Origin: a virus
Length of the DNA: 14,943 nt
Virus genome (UHGV): UHGV-1730386
Reading direction: 5' to 3' (one strand)
Shown here: positions 1,895-12,028 of the stretch, piece by piece
Position numbering within the stretch: position 1 is the stretch's first letter
Layout of the letters: each line of letters starts with the position of its first letter
Made by a program: the position numbers and the translations under genes
The notes under the pieces: generated by a model
What the model saw: the letters and a program-made list of their open reading frames with translations, nothing else
Told to the model about the DNA's origin: nothing
Databases searched by the model: none

Positions 1895-1923
1895 ATGGTA
1901 CTCTTCCATGAGCACCTTGTCAA
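1895..1923 (-). promoter_or_regulatory. candidate sigma70-like promoter (TTGACA-N17-TACCAT) just downstream of the DNA polymerase stop, reading leftward
   Basis: On the minus strand: TTGACA (plus 1918..1923), a 17-nt spacer, then TACCAT (plus 1895..1900), followed by an AT-rich leader and the AGGAG RBS of ORF 1667..1867. Sequence match only. Confidence 0.25.
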
Positions 1924-1928
1924 CACTA

Positions 1929-4628
1929 TTAGTGGACTTCAAGCCACGATTTACCAACCTTACCAGTACCCGTTACCAAAGTATCCTTCTTCAGCCCCAA
2001 GTTTTTAGAAGCTTGACCATAATACCAGTCAGTTACTGCCTTAACTTCTGCTGTCATGCTTTCTGGACATTCCCAGCTTGTTTCGTCGTGGTAAGCACAA
2101 AGTAAACGAGCACCGATAGCTGGCTTACGACCATTTAGTTTCATCAAACCTTCATCAATCATACGACGACAAGCAAGGTTGATTGCTTCATTCTGAACTT
2201 GTGCTTCTGAACCCATCAACAGATAGTTCAAGAGTTTGTGTGGAGATTTACACCACAACCACGCCCCAGCAACCTGAACAAATCCACCTTTAGCAATTGC
2301 AGCAGTTTTACCAAAGACCTCTTCAAGAGCTTTCTTAGTTGCTTTAAAGTCAGCTTCTAAGTTATCAATCAGTTTCTTAATCTTCGGCAAACGAACAAAG
2401 TAAGTCTGCTTAGTCAATGCACCTTCTTGAGTAGTTGAAGCTTTGATGGTCTTAGCAAACTTCTCATCACCCGCACCGAACAGCAGTGCATAGATACCGT
2501 TTTTAGCTTTTTTACGACCCTTACTAATCTCGTGAAGAAGATTCTCATCCTGAGTCATACGACAAGTCAAGATATCCTGCTCATCATTCAAGCTGAAGTA
2601 AATACTGTTCAGTGTGTGAGCATCAGTGCCTGAATAGACTACGTACAAGTCGTTTTCAGAGTCATAACGCAGATACTTGTCAACTTCTGGGTTAAGGTAT
2701 TCGTCGAAGTGTTTGCAGTAATAACGACCATCTTCTTGACGAATAAACTCAATTTCTTCCTTACCTTCTGTTACTGCTTTGGTGAACTCTTTATCACCCA
2801 TAAAGTTACACAGTAACACAAGCTGTGCAGAGTTCATATCAACGGATACTACGTTGGTTCCTTCTTCACAAATCCAGACTGCCCTCATTGGTTCCCCGTA
2901 AACAGCAGCCCCAGAAGGTACGTTCACAATACCATACTGTGTCATACGACCAGTTGAAGTACCAAACACCATTGCACCAGCACTCAAGCGACCATCTGGA
3001 CGAATCTGGTTTAACCAACCTTTCTCGTCATCTTTTGAGTTCTCAATAGTTCTACGTCGGTGCATCAAAGTATAGTACTTCGCAATCTTTTGTCCAAGTT
3101 CACCTTCAATGGTGTCATAAGAAGATTCAGTAAGTTTAGGTGAAGTACGAATCAAGCAAGGCTCAAGCAAATCTGTGTACTTCCTAACAGACCAGTTATG
3201 CTCAATGTAATGAACCCCTTCATGCTCAATGTAGTTCAATCCACAACGTTCAACCATCTCATCCCACTTAGGATGTTTACGAATCATCTTCTTATTATCT
3301 TTGAAGCGACATACCTTGATTGGACGGTTATCAGAATCCTTTTTGTAGTTCCAATCATCAGGAATCCAGCCAACAGATTTCAAGTATTCCTTCACCACTG
3401 CAACTTGAGTCATACGTGAAACTTCAAACTCAATTGGTGTATAAGGTGCATCAACAAGACCTGTGTAACGGCTTGACTCCATTTCAAAGTGATTTACTAC
3501 GTGGTTATTGTAGTACTTCACAGTTTTAACTGTCTTAACTGGCTTCCAATCCTTACACTTCTTGCCAGCCTTAGCATTCAACTCATTGCAGATTGCACGA
3601 GCATCTTTCATTGCTACAAAACCTTCCCTGTACTCTTCACCAGTGACAGTGTTAGTTGGAGTGTAGCAATTACGTTTCTCAATGTTGAAAATCTTTGTAG
3701 TTGGTTTCCCATATGGCTTGATAGGGTACGTCTTCAGTTCCCCTTCACGCATCTGCTCACGATACTTTGTCTTTGGATACTTTGTGATACGTTTCAAACC
3801 ATCTACATGACCAAATGTTTCAACATACTCATTCCATGCCTTGGCAAACTCTTCACCAGTTACTTTACCTTTCGTCTTAATAGTCGGAGGTAAGAACGGT
3901 TCAACTTCAGAGGCTAACTCAGAAGTCATCTTATCCAGTTCTTCTACACAGGACTTCATAAGGTCAATGTTAGCTTTCCAACCATTAATAGCTTGTTGAC
4001 TCATCCAGAAAGAAGTCTCTTTAGCTCGCATGTAGGTTTCGTAAGTATCTACACCACACTTCTTAAGCTTAAGGTATTCATTATCCATAGCACGTTTTGC
4101 TTTGGCGTTGATTCGAATATCCTCAACAACACGGTTAAGAATATCAGCGTTCCACACACCCCACTCTTCAATCTCTGGTTTACGAACACCAACACGAGCA
4201 CCCCATGCAGCCAAGCCATGAGCACCTTTGTAACCTTTTGGTGTAGGTCTATCCATCCACTGCACACGAGATTGTATAAGTGAATCCTGAAAGAAGTCAC
4301 TCCAAGGTTTACACTTAGGATTATCAAAGTTCCACAGGTCAGGTGCAATATGGTTGAACACCCACCAGTCATAACCAAGACCATTGTGGATACAAAGGCG
4401 TTTGGCTTTCAATGCAAACTCCACACCTTCACGCAAACCACCTTTGATGTATTTTGTATACTTGTGACCAAGGATAGGCTCATCAGTGAAAACCCACACA
4501 GCAGGTTCATCACTATCATCTTTGTAATCTGCGAATGCCATAACGTGAGCTTTTGTAAACTCAAGCAGCAACCCGTCAGTTTCTGTATCACCAACCAAAT
4601 GTAAGTTTTCAAAATCTACATTGTTCAT
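1929..4628 (-). CDS. DNA polymerase, family A (Pol I / T7 gp5-like) with N-terminal 3'-5' exonuclease domain
   Basis: 899-aa ORF. Exo I motif VGDTETDGL and an HNGLGYD Exo II-like motif at the N-terminus. Polymerase motif A SVDMNSAQLVLL, motif B (O-helix) RKKAKNGIYALLFGAG, motif C YHDET. GAGGGAG RBS about 6 nt upstream of the ATG at 4628..4626. Confidence 0.92.
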   Translation of the reverse strand: MNNVDFENLHLVGDTETDGLLLEFTKAHVMAFADYKDDSDEPAVWVFTDEPILGHKYTKYIKGGLREGVEFALKAKRLCIHNGLGYDWWVFNHIAPDLWNFDNPKCKPWSDFFQDSLIQSRVQWMDRPTPKGYKGAHGLAAWGARVGVRKPEIEEWGVWNADILNRVVEDIRINAKAKRAMDNEYLKLKKCGVDTYETYMRAKETSFWMSQQAINGWKANIDLMKSCVEELDKMTSELASEVEPFLPPTIKTKGKVTGEEFAKAWNEYVETFGHVDGLKRITKYPKTKYREQMREGELKTYPIKPYGKPTTKIFNIEKRNCYTPTNTVTGEEYREGFVAMKDARAICNELNAKAGKKCKDWKPVKTVKTVKYYNNHVVNHFEMESSRYTGLVDAPYTPIEFEVSRMTQVAVVKEYLKSVGWIPDDWNYKKDSDNRPIKVCRFKDNKKMIRKHPKWDEMVERCGLNYIEHEGVHYIEHNWSVRKYTDLLEPCLIRTSPKLTESSYDTIEGELGQKIAKYYTLMHRRRTIENSKDDEKGWLNQIRPDGRLSAGAMVFGTSTGRMTQYGIVNVPSGAAVYGEPMRAVWICEEGTNVVSVDMNSAQLVLLCNFMGDKEFTKAVTEGKEEIEFIRQEDGRYYCKHFDEYLNPEVDKYLRYDSENDLYVVYSGTDAHTLNSIYFSLNDEQDILTCRMTQDENLLHEISKGRKKAKNGIYALLFGAGDEKFAKTIKASTTQEGALTKQTYFVRLPKIKKLIDNLEADFKATKKALEEVFGKTAAIAKGGFVQVAGAWLWCKSPHKLLNYLLMGSEAQVQNEAINLACRRMIDEGLMKLNGRKPAIGARLLCAYHDETSWECPESMTAEVKAVTDWYYGQASKNLGLKKDTLVTGTGKVGKSWLEVH

Positions 4629-4887
4629 TTTAACTCCCTCTCAAATCATACTGCTTAATACCCTACTCCAATTTTTATGAAAAAGCAAGTTGACAAAGCA
4701 CTTGACAAGGTGTTAATCTTTGCGGAGTGGGTTTTATCTTAATAGACTCTCTTTACAGGTTAACTATACAGATTCTTTAAAACCCTTAAAAGATTTTTAA
4801 TAGCCTTTTAAAAGCTTTAAAGTTATACGTATAGAATACGTAAAGATAAGAGATTAAAATCTTTATAGAAACTTAGTAGAGGCAATT
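4629..4887. promoter_or_regulatory. AT-rich divergent intergenic control region between the leftward polymerase block and the rightward block
   Basis: 259 bp of non-coding DNA flanked by divergent start codons at 4628 (-) and 4888 (+). Contains tandem TTGACAA heptamers (4690..4696, 4702..4708), perfect palindromes CTTTTAAAAG (4805..4814), CTTTAAAG (4815..4822) and TATACGTATA (4824..4833), and a possible leftward promoter (GGTTAA 4758..4763 and ATCTTA 4736..4741 on plus, i.e. TTAACC-N16-TAAGAT on minus). Confidence 0.45.
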
Positions 4888-5310
4888 ATGCAGAGGATGT
4901 ACATTCACCCAGATATACAAAACTTCATTGATGCTTTAGAGAAACTTGAAAGGCTTGACTTAGAAGCACAGAAGGAATACGCTTTCCATCATCGACGTAT
5001 GGTTGATGTGCAGCATGAGATAGAGTTGTCAGAAGGGTACGACGATAAGATGAAGTGTTCAGTCTTTGAGCACATGAAAGAAATATCTTCAGAAAGACGT
5101 AAAGCAAAAGATACTATCTTTTTGATAGATACCTTAAAAAATAAGTTGCAAAATGGAACGGATTTAGATAGTCTATCACAACTGCTTCAGGATGCAGAGA
5201 ATACATGGGACAGGAATTACTTCCCAAGGTCTGAAAAAGGACTTGACTTCTCTTCACAAGAAAGCTTAAGATTATCACGACTAACTATTAACAAAATGAG
5301 AGAGAATTAA
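4888..5310 (+). CDS. hypothetical protein (140 aa)
   Basis: ATG-initiated ORF with upstream AGAGG, first gene of the rightward block. No motif recognised; predicted largely helical and charged. Confidence 0.6.
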   Translation: MQRMYIHPDIQNFIDALEKLERLDLEAQKEYAFHHRRMVDVQHEIELSEGYDDKMKCSVFEHMKEISSERRKAKDTIFLIDTLKNKLQNGTDLDSLSQLLQDAENTWDRNYFPRSEKGLDFSSQESLRLSRLTINKMREN

Positions 5311-5311
5311 T

Positions 5312-6115
5312 ATGACTACTGTAAATGAAATGCTGTCCTCAAAAGGTATTGATAGTAACTTTATGCTCAATACAATTGAAAGTCTTGCTATTGTAATGCG
5401 TAGCAACACATTCAGTTCCAAGGTAATGCCTGAATCATATCAGGTTAATGGAGATATCTCTGATGAGTCATCGTTTCGCTCACAAGTTAAACTCCTTCTA
5501 AGTGACCGTAAACTCGCTCTGGCATCTGTAGCGGTTGGTGTAGATGCCTTTGCTGGTTATATCTTTGACAACATGCAGACTGGTGACTTTAAAGTTCTTT
5601 CTGAGGAAGAGAAAGAAGGAATCCTTAACTTCTCTGAAGATGCTACCTTTGAACTGATTATCAACTCAATTGCAAGTGTTATGGCTGTTCTTGAGAAGCG
5701 TGTTCAAGATAAACTTCCACGCTATGAACAACTTGATTGGGGGTTCGTAGATATCTTTGAGCGAGTGCTGGAGATGGTGACCCTTACTAGTGAGCAACTT
5801 AAAGAGGTTGTTGCGCGTGAAGCTGAACATGGACTTGATGAGATTCAGGTTAAACTTACCGCATTGGTCCCATCAATCATCACTGTAATGGGTATCCACG
5901 CTCTGTTTGAAGTCGCTCAACTGATTGATGCACCTATAGAGTTTGTTGAGCAGATTGCTGGTGATGTAAGTGGTGAAGCACTACGCGAAGTCATTATGCA
6001 GACTGGTGCAGCAGTACTCCAAGAGAAAATTGCTATCCACTTCGGTGATGAGTTTGTTGAGACTCTTCAGGCTATCTCTGAAAAAGAAAAACTGGACTCT
6101 AACCAGATTCACTAA
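5312..6115 (+). CDS. hypothetical acidic protein (267 aa)
   Basis: ATG one nucleotide after the upstream stop. Strongly acidic composition (many Asp/Glu, few Lys/Arg) and no catalytic motif recognised. Followed by a hairpin and T-tract. Confidence 0.65.
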   Translation: MTTVNEMLSSKGIDSNFMLNTIESLAIVMRSNTFSSKVMPESYQVNGDISDESSFRSQVKLLLSDRKLALASVAVGVDAFAGYIFDNMQTGDFKVLSEEEKEGILNFSEDATFELIINSIASVMAVLEKRVQDKLPRYEQLDWGFVDIFERVLEMVTLTSEQLKEVVAREAEHGLDEIQVKLTALVPSIITVMGIHALFEVAQLIDAPIEFVEQIAGDVSGEALREVIMQTGAAVLQEKIAIHFGDEFVETLQAISEKEKLDSNQIH

Positions 6116-6127
6116 TACAATTGTTTT

Positions 6128-6157
6128 CCCCAAGCCTCCTTAATTGGGGGCTTTTTA
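6128..6157 (+). terminator. candidate rho-independent terminator
   Basis: CCCCAA (6128..6133) pairs with TTGGGG (6144..6149) around a 10-nt loop, then GC and TTTTT (6152..6156). Lies immediately after the stop of ORF 5312..6115. Confidence 0.4.
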
Positions 6158-9097: not shown

Positions 9098-9350
9098 TAG
9101 TTATCTGAAGGAGGGCATCACGCCCTTCTATTCAGAAAATAGCACTAAAAAATTTGCAAAAGATTGCTTGACTAAGATTGAAGAGTTCGCTAAAGTACTA
9201 ATCAACAAGGGGCATGATGTTACTTATGAACATGAAAGCCGTGAAGATAAAGACTTGTTTGCACTGTCAATTGACAAAGCTGAAACAATTTATCTTTTTA
9301 CCTTGACTTTAAAAACATTTGAATATGAAATATATCGGAGCACAAAATGA
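9072..9350 (+). CDS. hypothetical protein (about 92 aa; start uncertain, overlaps the primase-helicase 3' end)
   Basis: The frame is open from inside the helicase gene to TGA 9348..9350. The only ATGs are at 9057/9063/9069/9072, before the helicase stop; GAGGA at 9060..9064 sits upstream of 9072. Its stop overlaps the next ATG (ATGA at 9347..9350). The track ORF 8805..9350 is an over-extension. Confidence 0.3.
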   Translation: MTARLKLTDSYLKEGITPFYSENSTKKFAKDCLTKIEEFAKVLINKGHDVTYEHESREDKDLFALSIDKAETIYLFTLTLKTFEYEIYRSTK

Positions 9351-10488: not shown

Positions 10489-11529
10489 ATGAATCAGTAT
10501 ACACTTACAAAGCTCCCAGAAAGCGTTACACACGTCTTCATTGACGCAGACAGCATTGCTTACAAGGGTGCTTGTGTAGTTGAAAAAGCAAAGTACAAGT
10601 ATGTGAATAAACTTACCGCTGAAGAGTCTGATGACTTTGATAGTGCTAAGTTAGCTTCACAATGGTTAGCTGACCAGAGAGTTCTTACAGAGGAACTTGG
10701 ACTTGACTTTGATGAAGATGAGTGGGAAAGACAGACTTGGAAGGAAGCCAAGAGCGAAAAAGAAGCTATTATGGCAACTCAGCAGGTTCTTCAAGAATGG
10801 CTTAAAGTTGTCGGTAAAGAGCGTCAATGGATGGGTTACCTGACTGAGAAGGGTGTTCACAAACACAAAGACATTAAAGGTCTTGAACATCAATATCAAG
10901 GTAACAGGAAAGATGCGGTGACACCTACGCACCTAGTTGCTTGTCGTGAGTATCTTCTGTCACGACCTGAGTTTAAGCTTCTCAAAGGTGGCTTTGAAGC
11001 TGACTCAATCGTTATTGCAAAAGCTGAAAAGATGGGTAAAAAAGCTGCTCTTATGAGTATTGATAAAGACCTTCGTCAAGCTGAAGGTACATATTGTATT
11101 GATATGACTTATGAGAAAGCACCACTTATCTTTATTGCTGATAATAACATTGGAGAGATTTGGGATTGCCCTATCAAATCCAAACCAAAAGCTAAGAAGA
11201 CAGTCGGAGTAGGCTTCAAATTCCTCTGCTATCAAGCTGTAGCAGGTGATAATGCAGATAACTACTTTGGCCTTAAGGGTGCTGGTAAAGTTGCTGTAAT
11301 GAACGCTCTGGAAGGTAAAACAACCTATAGAGAATGTTTAGATGCTGTTTATGAGTTGTATGCAAAGAAAGACTCTTACACCTATGTGTCGTGGGACGGT
11401 CAAACAATTACCAGAACACCTTTAGAGTTAATGCACCAGCACTTCTGGATTGCATACCAAGAGCGAAATCCAAAGGATGATTTCACGTTTGAAAAATATG
11501 GATGGGAGCCTACTATGAATGAAGATTAA
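10489..11529 (+). CDS. 5'-3' exonuclease / flap endonuclease (T7 gp6 / RNase H-like, PIN-fold family)
   Basis: 346 aa. N-terminal acidic motif VFIDADSIAYKG, central IDKDLRQAEG, and C-terminal AGDNADNYFGLKGAGKVAV, arranged like the metal-binding Asp clusters and helix-hairpin-helix region of phage 5'-3' exonucleases. GGAGG RBS at 10480..10484. Confidence 0.7.
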   Translation: MNQYTLTKLPESVTHVFIDADSIAYKGACVVEKAKYKYVNKLTAEESDDFDSAKLASQWLADQRVLTEELGLDFDEDEWERQTWKEAKSEKEAIMATQQVLQEWLKVVGKERQWMGYLTEKGVHKHKDIKGLEHQYQGNRKDAVTPTHLVACREYLLSRPEFKLLKGGFEADSIVIAKAEKMGKKAALMSIDKDLRQAEGTYCIDMTYEKAPLIFIADNNIGEIWDCPIKSKPKAKKTVGVGFKFLCYQAVAGDNADNYFGLKGAGKVAVMNALEGKTTYRECLDAVYELYAKKDSYTYVSWDGQTITRTPLELMHQHFWIAYQERNPKDDFTFEKYGWEPTMNED

Positions 11530-12028
11530 AGGTTTCGGTAATTGTCCTGTTTATGGTCATTGGGTATCTTTATGCGGGGAAGTTGACCCCGCTAAACTGT
11601 TCGGGTTTGTCTACCTAGTCTATTGTAAGAAAACTGGACAGTATTACATTGGTAAAAAACAGTTCAATAGTATCACTAAGAAGAAGGTTGCTGGAAAGAC
11701 CAGACGTAAGGTTGTCACCAAAGAGAGTGACTGGATGGTTTACCAGACTTCTTCTGAGTACATTAAGAAAGATATTGAAGCTTTTGGTATGAAAGAGTTT
11801 GACTTCTACATTGTGCAAACCTATTATACACGAGGTGGATTAGTCTACGGAGAAGCAAATCTCCAACATAAGTTCGATGTTATGACAAAAAGGATTGACT
11901 CGAAACTCAGACTCTTCTACAATGCCAATATTGCAGCTATCAAGTTCCTTACAAAAGAAACTTATGAAGAAGCTGAGAAACGTATTAACAAAATCATGAA
12001 ACTTAACGAGAGAGAAAATCATGTTTAA
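11519..12028 (+). CDS. putative GIY-YIG family nuclease (single-domain, 169 aa)
   Basis: FGFVYLVYCKKTGQYYIGKKQF matches the GIY-(10-11 aa)-YIG pattern with VYL replacing GIY. It is followed by a basic stretch with Arg (KTRRK), then FDFYIVQ, a conserved-position Glu (GEANL) and YNAN (the GYN-like Asn). Start overlaps the exonuclease stop by 11 nt. Confidence 0.5.
   Translation: MKIKGFGNCPVYGHWVSLCGEVDPAKLFGFVYLVYCKKTGQYYIGKKQFNSITKKKVAGKTRRKVVTKESDWMVYQTSSEYIKKDIEAFGMKEFDFYIVQTYYTRGGLVYGEANLQHKFDVMTKRIDSKLRLFYNANIAAIKFLTKETYEEAEKRINKIMKLNERENHV

Follow-up and report, generated by a model that had tools for sequence, protein, structure and literature searches.

A Felix O1-like phage probably has two host-type promoters, standing back to back, and a long, strongly conserved leader built of a repeated 8-base word in the AT-rich gap between its DNA polymerase gene and its primase-helicase operon

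Introduction

What occupies the AT-rich gap which separates the DNA polymerase gene of a Felix O1-like phage from the oppositely oriented operon carrying its primase-helicase gene: promoters, an operator, a replication origin, or several of these? Felix O1-like phages are widely used in the typing of Salmonella and E. coli, in biocontrol and in reporter-phage engineering. To our knowledge their promoters, their temporal control and their replication origin have never been mapped.

The window (the whole stretch of 14,943 nucleotides which was analysed) comes from a Mooglevirus-type Felix O1-like phage and has 99.5% identity with Shigella phage ESh22 (Ounavirinae, Mooglevirus). The spacer at 4629-4887 is bounded by a minus-strand ORF encoding an 899-aa family A DNA polymerase (1929-4628) and by a plus-strand ORF of 140 aa (4888-5310), and the genes on its flanks include, besides the polymerase, a dNMP kinase and a primase-helicase. 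A first-pass annotation had described it as an AT-rich divergent control region with a cluster of palindromes, which might be operator sites for a dimeric regulator and/or a replication origin. The ORF positions and the GC content (29.7% in the spacer vs 39.7% in the window) bear out the AT-rich gap between divergent gene blocks. For the homologous 96-97 spacer of Felix O1, divergent promoters were assumed in the genome paper but none could be found (PMC3185647).

There is no rival location for the promoters of the two divergent gene blocks, and we read the spacer as the transcription control region of the replication module, made up of a leftward promoter (P_L0), a rightward promoter (P_R1) and a leader array. 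We give this reading a probability of roughly 0.7. In kind the spacer is an ordinary element; the promoters predicted within it were previously unrecognised.

Results

Conservation patterns were drawn from 22 unique sequences and a deeper clade (L058/L059), with about 25 distinct spacer sequences overall. Chance IMG/VR matches to the signature pattern, which lay on non-homologous contigs, were set aside (L014, L018, L020, L022, L025, L033, L045, L046, L050 and L051). The core of the spacer (4680-4870) is under strong purifying selection, because it was 86-92% identical across genera where the third codon positions of the flanking genes were 53-76% identical. Recombination which homogenises the spacer among co-infecting phages could be a partial cause of this high conservation. 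The 17-bp inverted repeat, the ACAGATTCTTTAAA core and the TATAGT element were not kept in L058/L059, so the repeat and the ACAGATTCTTTAAA core are not universal parts. No conserved small ORF was found in the spacer: the window version has ORFs of 20-26 aa only, the ATG at 4677 is missing in Felix O1 and the frames are broken by 1-nt indels between clades. No Rho-independent terminator (a GC-rich hairpin with a T run) was found within 4400-5100 on either strand.

Phylogenetic footprints support two back-to-back sigma70-type promoters whose -35 hexamers are 1 bp apart (Table 1), and the earlier description as a divergent control region is thereby supported, with promoter-like elements diverging from 4683-4695. 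On the rightward side, P_R1 scored 12.1 on the weight matrix (99.9th percentile of the window: 10.4). Its TG, T-12, A-11 and T-7 were invariant across clades and the variation was confined to the 'n' of the extended -10 (T/G) and to position 3 of the hexamer (A/G). Its weak points are an 18-nt spacer and a -10 hexamer which matches the consensus at 3 of 6 bases. The records of phages ASO1B and ASO1A carry independent computational promoter annotations at the first TTGACA. A second plus-strand candidate, TTGCGG-17-TAGACT (score 10.3), was rejected, as it is not conserved in the Felix, Susp and pEC clades.

Table 1 Features of the spacer and of a related site, with positions in the window ("." = no strand assigned).
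Feature	Position	Strand	Remarks
Sigma70-like promoter TTGACA-17-TACCAT, separate from the spacer	1895..1923	-	Between polymerase stop codon (1929) and next minus-strand ORF (1867)
Shine-Dalgarno region of DNA polymerase gene	4634..4642	-	GAGAGGGAG on the minus strand, 5 nt before ATG at 4628; read from sequence
-10 hexamer TAGGGT of predicted P_L0	4660..4665	-	Predicted start near 4653
P_L0 spacer, 17 nt	4666..4682	-	Exactly 17 in every clade, sequence scrambled
-35 hexamer TTGCTT of predicted P_L0	4683..4688	-	Invariant in 22 unique sequences and L058/L059
-35 hexamer TTGACA of predicted P_R1 (first tandem copy)	4690..4695	+	6/6 consensus matches; invariant in all clades
Second TTGACA, inside P_R1 -35/-10 spacer	4702..4707	+	Invariant; nucleotides between the two hexamers vary freely
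Extended -10 of predicted P_R1, TG-n-TAATCT	4711..4719	+	TG 4711-4712, hexamer 4714-4719; predicted start near 4726
Invariant block at predicted start, TTGCGGAGTGGGTTT	4720..4734	+	Nearly invariant down to L058/L059
Predicted transcribed leader of rightward operon, ~160 nt	4726..4887	+	AT-rich CTT(T)A.AG array
Large imperfect dyad, centre near 4798	4736..4860 (125 bp)	.	Overlaps least stable 150 bp
Word CTTTAC	4751..4756	+	Changes in concert with inverted-repeat arms: CTTTAT in Moogle, CTTAAC in Felix
Possible internal leftward promoter TTTTAA-17-TATAGT (speculative)	-10 at 4763..4768	-	Left dyad arm; weak -35, score 7.0
Possible internal rightward promoter TTAAAA-18-TAGAAT (speculative)	4808..4837	+	9/12 matches in simple scan; weight-matrix score 8.0
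Inverted repeat TACGTAT-AGA-ATACGTA, 17 bp	4826..4842	.	Operator-like palindrome or small hairpin
Shine-Dalgarno GAGG of 140-aa gene (ATG at 4888)	4879..4882	+	AGAGG invariant

On the leftward side, P_L0 scored 7.5 on a generic sigma70 matrix (99th percentile of the window: 5.9). The 17-nt spacer of P_L0 is the least conserved stretch, with a mean pairwise identity of 0.66, and is flanked by hexamers under constraint: T-12, A-11 and T-7 of the -10 were kept in all clades, and positions -10 to -8 varied (TAGGGT, TAATGT, TAAGGT, TAGTGT and TAATTT). CTCCCTC in the Shine-Dalgarno region of the polymerase gene was also conserved in the alignment. From P_L0 (TTGCTT from 4688 to 4683, TAGGGT from 4665 to 4660) transcription would enter the DNA polymerase gene through a leader of about 25 nt. 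From P_R1 it would run through the 140-aa gene and a 267-aa gene and past a terminator-like hairpin at 6132-6153 into the dNMP kinase and primase-helicase genes. In the literature searched no transcript 5' ends had been mapped for any Ounavirinae phage, and every start site given here is a prediction. In Felix O1, ORFs 96 and 101 were transcribed within 5 min, and ORFs 96-99 and 101 were listed as maximal at 25 min (PMC3185647).

The -35 hexamer of P_R1 follows AAAAAG-N4, an arrangement shared with the canonical promoters of this phage, and the A-tract AAAAAG (4680-4685) overlaps the 17-nt spacer of P_L0. An UP element would be an A-tract at about -46 to -38 occurring together with -35 hexamers. 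A strict pattern, TTTAAAA(A)G 2-6 nt upstream, was found at 9 of 31 intergenic and 5 of 158 coding TTGAC[AT] sites (p = 3e-5), and left out P_R1 itself, whose upstream word is GAAAAAG-N4. Judged by this co-occurrence with -35 hexamers, the A-tract appears UP-like and is a putative alpha-CTD site. For IHF, Fis, DnaA, boxA and alternative sigma factors, inspection by eye gave weak partial matches to the consensus sites only.

The two TTGACAA copies which the first-pass annotation had placed at 4690 and 4702 were both present. A tandem of this kind is expected 0.01 times by chance with one mismatch allowed, and 0 of 2000 shuffles of the spacer contained two copies. The first copy would be the -35 of P_R1 and the second would lie within the promoter spacer, with no -10-like hexamer 16-19 nt downstream of it. 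The promoter alone is no explanation for the invariance of the second TTGACA and of the next 27 nt. The same tandem arrangement was found at two further sites in the genome.

The annotation had also reported that an 11-mer, TTGACAAGGTG, recurs on the minus strand at 1910-1920. An exact minus-strand copy does exist (2 occurrences vs 0.02 expected), at 1913-1923; all other coordinates were correct. This copy appears to be no more than the -35 of a further strong promoter of sigma70-like type, located downstream of the polymerase gene (Table 1); that promoter had the top minus-strand score of the window (14.1) and was also found by a simple promoter scan.

The palindrome cluster proved to be something else. 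Of the six palindromes listed, three are genuine and stand where they had been placed, CTTTTAAAAG (4805-4814), CTTTAAAG (4815-4822) and TATACGTATA (4824-4833); the other three, CTTTAAAAC, CTTAAAAG and ATACGTA, are not palindromes, and the second ATACGTA does stand at 4836-4842. Nor was there an excess over background, with 7 palindromic 6-mers vs 5.8 expected from the dinucleotide composition of the spacer, 4 palindromic 8-mers vs 1.8 (p about 0.10) and 2 palindromic 10-mers vs 0.54 (p about 0.11). CTTTAAAG occurred a further four times in the coding DNA of the window, and the perfect CTTTTAAAAG was confined to the lineage of the window, other clades having CTTTTAAAAAG.

The TTTAAA-centred 'palindromes' represent a repeated 8-base word which in most cases is not palindromic, and the cluster as a whole would be the leader downstream of P_R1. 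CTT(T)A.AG units stand at 4738, 4751, 4764, 4785, 4796, 4805, 4815, 4861 and 4872, with a period of about 11 bp (11-13 bp) and a lag-11 autocorrelation of z = 4.1 in the leader. The pattern CTT[TA]A[ATC]AG was found 5 times in the spacer of the window (0.13 expected) and 7, 6, 4, 4 and 2 times in other clades, with expectations of 0.05-0.19; the L058 leader has 6 units on its minus strand too. In our preferred reading the array, which is in helical phase, would be a protein-binding platform on the DNA which binds RNA polymerase alpha subunits and/or a phage-encoded regulator and so sets the strength and timing of the operon. The CTT(T)A.AG word is also the UP-like companion of the -35 in other promoters of the phage.

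Two larger symmetries are laid over the array. The imperfect 125-bp dyad had a gapped self-vs-reverse-complement score of 38 (15.3 +/- 3.4 in dinucleotide shuffles), which was reached by 0 of 500 shuffles. As a paired structure it was rejected: 65% of its positions are paired with almost no covariation, and the DNA fold is marginal (z = -1.7). The 17-bp inverted repeat is expected 0.03 times by chance; 96% of its cells are paired, and its covariation score was reached by 0 of 500 shuffles, with compensatory changes from C:G to T:A in the Moogle clade and from T:A to A:T in the Felix clade. L058/L059 have TTATATAA in its place. The proposal of operator sites for a dimeric regulator is plausible for this inverted repeat only, which would serve as an operator-like site, and the TTTAAA-centred words are not special as palindromes. 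For the word CTTTAC, whose changes go along with those in the arms of the repeat, an anti-Shine-Dalgarno role was also considered and dropped, its pairing with GUAGAG at 4876-4881 being confined to the window and the Moogle clade.

We consider it quite unlikely that the symmetry and the concerted changes merely reflect how the DNA mutates. In this view template switching during replication of an AT-rich quasi-palindrome would copy one arm onto the other, so that compensatory changes and inverted loops appear with no selection at work, and small palindromes would arise by chance. Such an origin would suit the palindrome counts, which do not exceed the composition expectation, the lack of conservation of the inverted repeat in L058/L059, and phiST56, in which the loop of the repeat is flipped from AGA to TCT, a classic outcome of template switching. 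However, it explains covariation and not conservation: the whole core is under strong purifying selection, the unit array was kept through sequence turnover in five other clades, and the dyad and tandem hexamers are far above chance.

The leader might instead act as RNA, as a structured or protein-bound 5' UTR controlling terminator read-through (nut/put-like), processing, stability or translation through the hairpin at 4826-4842 and an alternative pairing of 4751-4756 with 4840-4845. All units have the same orientation, downstream of a promoter, and do so in three paralogous cassettes heading transcription units; compensatory changes are seen at two pairs of the hairpin, the covariation of the left word with the 3' arm could be due to two helices that exclude each other, and the terminator-like hairpin lies downstream. 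The passage of transcription past many terminators was left open in the Felix O1 paper (PMC3185647). Even so, single-sequence folding was no better than shuffles (z = -1.0 for the plus strand and -0.2 for the leftward leader), the RNAalifold consensus was weak with a covariation term of -1.2, and the best Rfam score was 23 bits against a threshold of 78 bits, i.e. no match. The large dyad is paired at 65% only, with covariation limited to a 7-8-bp hairpin, and the hairpin, a 7-bp AU-rich stem, is lost in L058/L059. The palindromic CTTTAAAG and CTTTTAAAAG units and the six minus-strand units of the L058 leader fit DNA recognition better, and a role as RNA seems quite improbable to us.

It is conceivable but doubtful that the dyad arms form another, internal pair of promoters standing back to back, of the delayed ('middle') kind, for the polymerase and primase operons. 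The AT-rich UP-like words in the centre would then be common to both promoters, and the 17-bp palindrome, which overlaps the rightward -10, would be their point of control. The arms are mirror images (CTTTTAA..G.TTTAAAG-N4-5-YGTATAG), TATAG(T/A) is the common -10 of the phage, the TATAGT at 4763..4768 is invariant in Felixouna-, Susp- and Mooglevirus, and the leftward promoter is annotated computationally in the ASO1B record. In addition, the sequence AAAAGATTTTT (4788-4798) looks like a distal UP subsite, placed for the rightward promoter at about -56 to -46. A late peak of expression would also suit delayed promoters, and Felix O1 ORFs 96-99 peak at 25 min (PMC3185647). Against this, the -35 hexamers are poor (scores of 7.0 and 8.0), and the arm signature AAAG-N-GTATAG occurs with the same architecture nowhere else in the genome, and so defines no promoter class. 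Neither the TATAGT element nor the palindrome is preserved in L058/L059, phiST56 has a rearranged -10 and Moogle an altered one, and transcription of the polymerase gene is already accounted for by P_L0.

The array in its preferred reading calls for a binding partner. The 140-aa protein encoded next to the leader, the one gene product examined for this role, belongs to a PHROG of unknown function and has 10 homologues only; it was modelled as a helical hairpin (pLDDT 72), for which there was no structural match at E < 0.2 and nothing informative in the PDB. It was dropped as a candidate for a leader-binding factor, having no recognisable DNA-binding fold and so few homologues.

A replication origin was the other function proposed for the spacer: it would be, or would also be, an origin of the T7 type, in which the P_R1 transcript or R-loop opens the AT-rich stretch for the polymerase and primase-helicase encoded on the flanks, and the repeated units or the dyad could further bind an initiator. 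We consider this unlikely. The stretch at 4731-4880 is the least stable of all 150-bp windows in the 88-kb genome (rank 2 for 100-bp windows), a high-scoring promoter stands immediately upstream of it, and the polymerase and primase-helicase genes lie on either side; low stability downstream of a strong promoter is, however, equally expected of an AT-rich promoter region, and other AT-rich, repeat-laden non-coding DNA is found at window-equivalent 42-43.7 kb. The phased array and the large dyad, a conservation much denser than promoters alone need, and sites changing in concert between clades, as origin iterons can, all fit an origin, yet with three paralogous cassettes, one of which sits among small early genes, nothing singles out the copy in the spacer. 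Read on the minus strand, each TTGACAA contains TTGTC, a word that agrees with the T7 primase site 5'-(G/T)2GTC-3' but is too short to be diagnostic.

A GC-skew inflection had been named as a sign of an origin. It is fully accounted for by the switch of coding strand: the skew reverses at each of the four switch points in the genome, and the coding-strand skew was +0.10 for plus-strand genes vs +0.11 for minus-strand genes. The skew is no evidence for an origin because it is confounded by gene orientation.

Discussion

The spacer, as a promoter region, can be set beside several known systems. Sigma70 promoters with an UP element and an extended -10 (of the E. coli rrnB P1 type, and the strong early promoters of virulent coliphages) are like P_R1 in their consensus -35, TGn, T-12/A-11/T-7 and an A-tract which stops about 4 nt short of the -35, and P_R1 is presumably read by the unmodified host RNA polymerase early in infection. 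Unlike them, P_R1 has a second invariant TTGACA in its spacer and an invariant initial transcribed region, and 5-9 repeats of the UP-like word lie downstream of the start, a place at which P_R1 would not be expected to contact the alpha-CTD.

The divergent early regions of temperate phages (lambda OR/PR-PRM, 186 pR-pL and P2 Pe-Pc) have a similar arrangement, with close opposing promoters in a short region and a palindromic site overlapping a promoter element. The phage described here differs in being virulent with no repressor gene identified, in having one covarying palindromic site and in having repeated units which are mostly non-palindromic.

The primary origin of T7 (phi1.1A/phi1.1B with an A/T-rich cluster, at 3761-3821 in the T7 origin region; PMC12839067) likewise has a promoter with duplicated recognition elements facing a 100-150-bp AT-rich, easily melted stretch. 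In both phages a T7-like family A polymerase and a gp4-like primase-helicase are encoded alongside, and TTGTC words are present. The differences are that the spacer has a host sigma70-type promoter in place of promoters for a phage RNA polymerase, that it has one promoter with two -35 hexamers and not two complete promoters, and that the GC skew gives no support to the candidate origin.

The likeness nearest at hand is within the same genomes. Two paralogous promoter-leader cassettes stand elsewhere in the genome, making three in all, and the leader of the spacer is related to the two paralogous leaders with z = 3.0 and 4.9. The other divergent junction is built alike: its tandem TTGACA is invariant, the gap within the tandem is variable, and a TAGnnT -10 stands 17 nt from the first copy, together with a leftward TTGACT-17-TACCAT; a block resembling TTGCGGAGTGGGTTT, GGGGTTTATCT, stands after the third cassette. 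The rightward site at the other divergent junction is the P41 of Whichard et al. (PMC3185647), in the 40-41 divergent spacer of Felix O1. P41 resembles P_R1 in its TTGACA-N6-TTGACAAG, in a -10 placed 15-17 nt after the first hexamer and in having a conserved, AT-rich leader which contains CTTAAAAG units and an inverted repeat; in the Felix clade P41 and the element of the window have the same first 24 nt. It differs in heading a morphogenesis block where the spacer heads a replication block, in the sequence of its inverted repeat (AGATATC-N6-GATATCT) and in having a consensus-like leftward partner, TTGACT-17-TACCAT.

We suggest, tentatively and with more doubt than confidence, that the spacer is one of three paralogous copies of an undescribed cassette, which a phage factor would read in order to time long operons or to fire a T7-like transcription-activated origin. 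The parts of such a cassette would be a sigma70 promoter with a second invariant -35-like hexamer between its -35 and -10, 27 invariant nt spanning the start, and 5-9 phased CTT(T)A.AG words. If this were true it would answer how a phage without an RNA polymerase, a sigma factor or a known polymerase modifier orders its gene expression, a question open since the Felix O1 genome paper.

The reading as a transcription control region offers predictions in the form of starts near 4653 (leftward) and 4726 (rightward), the key bases of each promoter and a family of three promoter-leader cassettes. The repeat array and the invariant second -35-like hexamer go beyond standard promoter models. Should they turn out to be a timing device or an origin, the engineering of Felix O1-like phages would gain useful parts and a gap in understanding would be filled; otherwise the region is simply a bidirectional early promoter which is well conserved.

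Phage identity and conservation of the spacer

The window derives from a myovirus of the Felix O1-like type (subfamily Ounavirinae). Over 1.1 kb around the spacer at 4629-4887, it shared 99.5% identity with Shigella phage ESh22 (genus Mooglevirus) and 60-90% with approximately 300 further phages infecting E. coli, Salmonella, Shigella, Citrobacter, Erwinia and Pectobacterium. The spacer is flanked by two divergent gene blocks and is one of the 2 divergent junctions in the full ESh22 genome. We found that it is a real, strongly conserved element of an ordinary kind, probably a bidirectional early promoter region; the first-pass annotation was right to call it a control region, and also to call it AT-rich (29.7% GC vs 39.7% in the window).

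Alignment with eight relatives, drawn from three genera, gave 86-92% identity for the core (4680-4870) and only 53-76% for third codon positions in the genes on either side. Purifying selection therefore acts on the non-coding core with the same strength as on the polymerase gene. Positions 4650-4679 were the variable exception within the aligned spacer. The 140-aa protein next to the spacer shared only 63% identity with its counterpart in Felix O1, and no recognisable fold was obtained for it. In a deeper Ounavirinae lineage, L058 and L059 (Logan assemblies SRR12736308 and SRR27912342), this protein is ~59% identical, the promoter block is the same and the leader is remodelled; these contigs are useful for comparative work. 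The Erwinia phages phiEa21-4 and vEam_W_25 of Kolesnikvirus (L010 and L012; 287-763) carry an HNH endonuclease gene as an insertion separating the polymerase gene from the spacer, a single TTGACA-17-TACATT in the spacer and a second promoter, TTGACT-17-TATGAT, with an inverted repeat (TCTTTA...TAAAGA) bracketing its -35.

Two further genes were also noted. The 267-aa ORF (5312-6115), in the middle of the replication module, is annotated as "minor tail protein" by PHROG and under the same name in several RefSeq records; this label may be wrong, since a replication module is an odd site for a tail gene. A SegE-like GIY-YIG homing endonuclease gene (11519-12028; Pfam PF19835, E = 6e-27) lies within the replication/nucleotide-metabolism block.

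Table. Genes and predicted promoter elements around the spacer, with the further tandem TTGACA sites of the genome
Feature	Position	Strand	Remarks
Family A DNA polymerase gene	1929-4628	minus	
Gene block right of spacer		plus	140-aa gene, 267-aa gene, dNMP kinase gene, gp4-like primase-helicase gene
P_L0 -10, TAGGGT	4665->4660	minus	TA...T kept
P_L0 -35, TTGCTT	4688->4683	minus	invariant
P_R1 -35, first TTGACA	4690-4695	plus	preceded by AAAAAG-N4
P_R1 -10, TAATCT	18 nt after first TTGACA	plus	TG two bases upstream
Tandem TTGACA	other divergent junction, upstream of Felix O1 gene 41 equivalent		
Tandem TTGACA	site among small early genes		

Predicted divergent promoters

The canonical promoters of this phage have the form TTTAAAAAG-N3-5-TTGACA-N17-TATAGT/TAGAAT. 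TTTAAAA(A)G was found 2-6 nt upstream of TTGAC[AT] at 9 of 31 intergenic hexamers vs 5 of 158 coding ones (p = 3e-5), and thus behaves as an UP-like companion of the -35. The predicted rightward promoter, P_R1, scored 12.1 on a sigma70 weight matrix, exceeding the window's 99.9th percentile. Across 22 unique sequences and the deeper clade L058/L059 recovered from public assemblies, its -10 region varied only at the "n" of TGn and at the third hexamer base, with TG, T-12, A-11 and T-7 constant, which is the footprint that would be expected of an extended -10 promoter. The leftward element, P_L0, which we take to be the DNA polymerase promoter, has a spacer of exactly 17 nt in all clades despite scrambled sequence. 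The two -35 hexamers are separated by 1 bp and the predicted starts (~4653 for P_L0 and ~4726 for P_R1) by ~73 bp; these starts are predictions, as no transcript mapping for the Felix O1-type phage group was found in the searched literature. In the genome paper of Felix O1 (PMC3185647), divergent promoters were assumed for the homologous spacer (96-97) but none was found; detection of ORFs 96 and 101 is reported within 5 min, and 25 min is listed as the time of the maximum for ORFs 96-99 and 101.

The motif coordinates of the first-pass annotation were all correct except that the minus-strand copy of the 11-mer TTGACAAGGTG lies at 1913-1923, not 1910-1920; its 2 copies are far above chance (0.02 expected). 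This second copy is contained in a strong sigma70-like promoter (TTGACA-17-TACCAT, 1895-1923, minus), the window's top-scoring minus-strand site, 6 nt past the polymerase stop codon and ~30 nt before the next small ORF (start 1867). TTGTCAATTGACA (9265-9276), which lies in a short gap following the primase-helicase gene, comprises two back-to-back TTGACA on opposite strands and may be another small bidirectional promoter.

The tandem TTGACAA was far above chance (0.01 expected). The second TTGACA falls between the -35 and the -10 of P_R1, and no -10-like hexamer is present 16-19 nt downstream of it; the promoter model leaves it unexplained. This hexamer and the next 27 nt (AGGTGTTAATCTTTGCGAAGTGGGTTT) are invariant as far as the L058/L059 clade, and the five or six bases separating the hexamers are free to vary. 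The tandem arrangement recurs at two further genome sites. At the gene-41 junction, the first hexamer has already been named promoter P41 (Whichard et al., PMC3185647), and this element and the window element begin with the same 24 nt in the Felix clade. The three sites are paralogous cassettes of promoter and leader.

The AT-rich block, a probable leader

Given that P_L0 already covers transcription of the polymerase gene, the best reading of 4726-4887 is a leader for the rightward operon. It contains an imperfect dyad (4736-4860, centre near 4798) with a gapped score of 38 vs 15.3 +/- 3.4, reached in 0 of 500 dinucleotide shuffles, and shows autocorrelation at lag 11 (z = 4.1). No wider class of promoters is defined by the dyad-arm signature. 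The whole leader forms an array of CTT[TA]A[ATC]AG units, the identical word to the UP-like element upstream of canonical promoters. This motif, defined from the window, was found in 7, 6, 4, 4 and 2 copies in five other clades, whose leaders have diverged (0.05-0.19 expected); in all but one of these clades, 0 of 2000 shuffles reached the observed count, and the array was present even where single units had shifted position. The three cassette leaders are mutually related (z = 3.0 and 4.9), with a common 5' module in which three units are spaced at 12-14 nt, and periodicity in the two paralogous leaders peaks at 12-14 nt. As far as the searched literature shows, this conserved array of 8-base words is new, as are the three cassettes, the invariant second -35-like hexamer and the predicted P_R1 and P_L0.

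RNA folding of the putative leaders was no better than for shuffles; the spacer gave no convincing consensus RNA structure and no Rfam match, and contains neither a terminator nor a conserved ORF. Between the 267-aa gene (end 6115) and the dNMP kinase gene there is a terminator-like hairpin on the plus strand (6132-6153; AAGCCTCC-TTAATT-GGGGGCTT then TTTATT), which rightward transcripts would have to read through or restart beyond. In the early small-ORF block of ESh22, a repeated intergenic leader, AATCCTAAACTGGAGA, includes the ribosome-binding site; its 8-mers have 13-14 intergenic occurrences and zero in coding DNA, and promoter spacers of this block sometimes contain terminator hairpins (GGGGCTT...AAGCCCC).

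Palindromes and inverted repeat

The real signal of the spacer is not the "palindrome cluster" originally described. Three of the listed sequences (CTTTAAAAC, CTTAAAAG and ATACGTA) are non-palindromic, and perfect palindromes are not above the dinucleotide-composition expectation of the spacer (8-mers and 10-mers: p ~0.1 each). CTTTAAAG does occur 5 times in the window (2342, 4815, 5587, 7966 and 9778) vs 0.53 expected, with 0 of 300 dinucleotide shuffles reaching 5, but 4 of the 5 copies are in coding DNA; perfect CTTTTAAAAG is confined to the window's lineage, with CTTTTAAAAAG in other clades.

Operators, also proposed, are plausible at one site only, the inverted repeat TACGTAT-AGA-ATACGTA (4826-4842), which is far above chance (0.03 expected). 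Its symmetry survives a C:G to T:A change (Moogle clade) and a T:A to A:T change (Felix clade), and its loop is flipped in one phage. CTTTAC (4751-4756) changes together with it, to CTTTAT in Moogle and CTTAAC in Felix. These patterns fit an operator-like site for a putative phage-encoded dimer, a small hairpin, or template-switch "correction" of a quasi-palindrome, a mutational process for which selection is not required. In L058/L059 the repeat is absent and TTATATAA stands in its place, so it is not universal to the element.

A possible replication origin

A replication origin in the spacer would be compatible with the promoter reading; we consider it unlikely. The circumstantial points in its favour are extreme helix instability (4731-4880 is the least stable of all 150-bp stretches in the whole 88-kb genome), a strong predicted promoter directed at this stretch, phased repeats and T7-like replication genes on the flanks. 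The parallel is the T7 primary origin, whose region contains an A/T-rich cluster at 3761-3821 (PMC12839067). The GC-skew inflection there is no evidence, since each of the four strand-switch points shows a skew flip that follows the coding strand, and genes of either orientation have equal coding-strand skew. Against an origin here, the genome contains three similar cassettes, and another AT-rich, repeat-laden non-coding region elsewhere.

At a convergent strand junction, ESh22 has a long, very AT-rich and mostly non-coding region (~14.0-15.7 kb; window-equivalent 42.0-43.7 kb) with numerous TATAG, CTTAAAAG and CTATAAAG units on each strand. For windows of 60 and 100 bp, helix stability reaches its genome-wide minimum here, and the region is a further candidate cis-acting element, whether origin, packaging site or terminal repeat.
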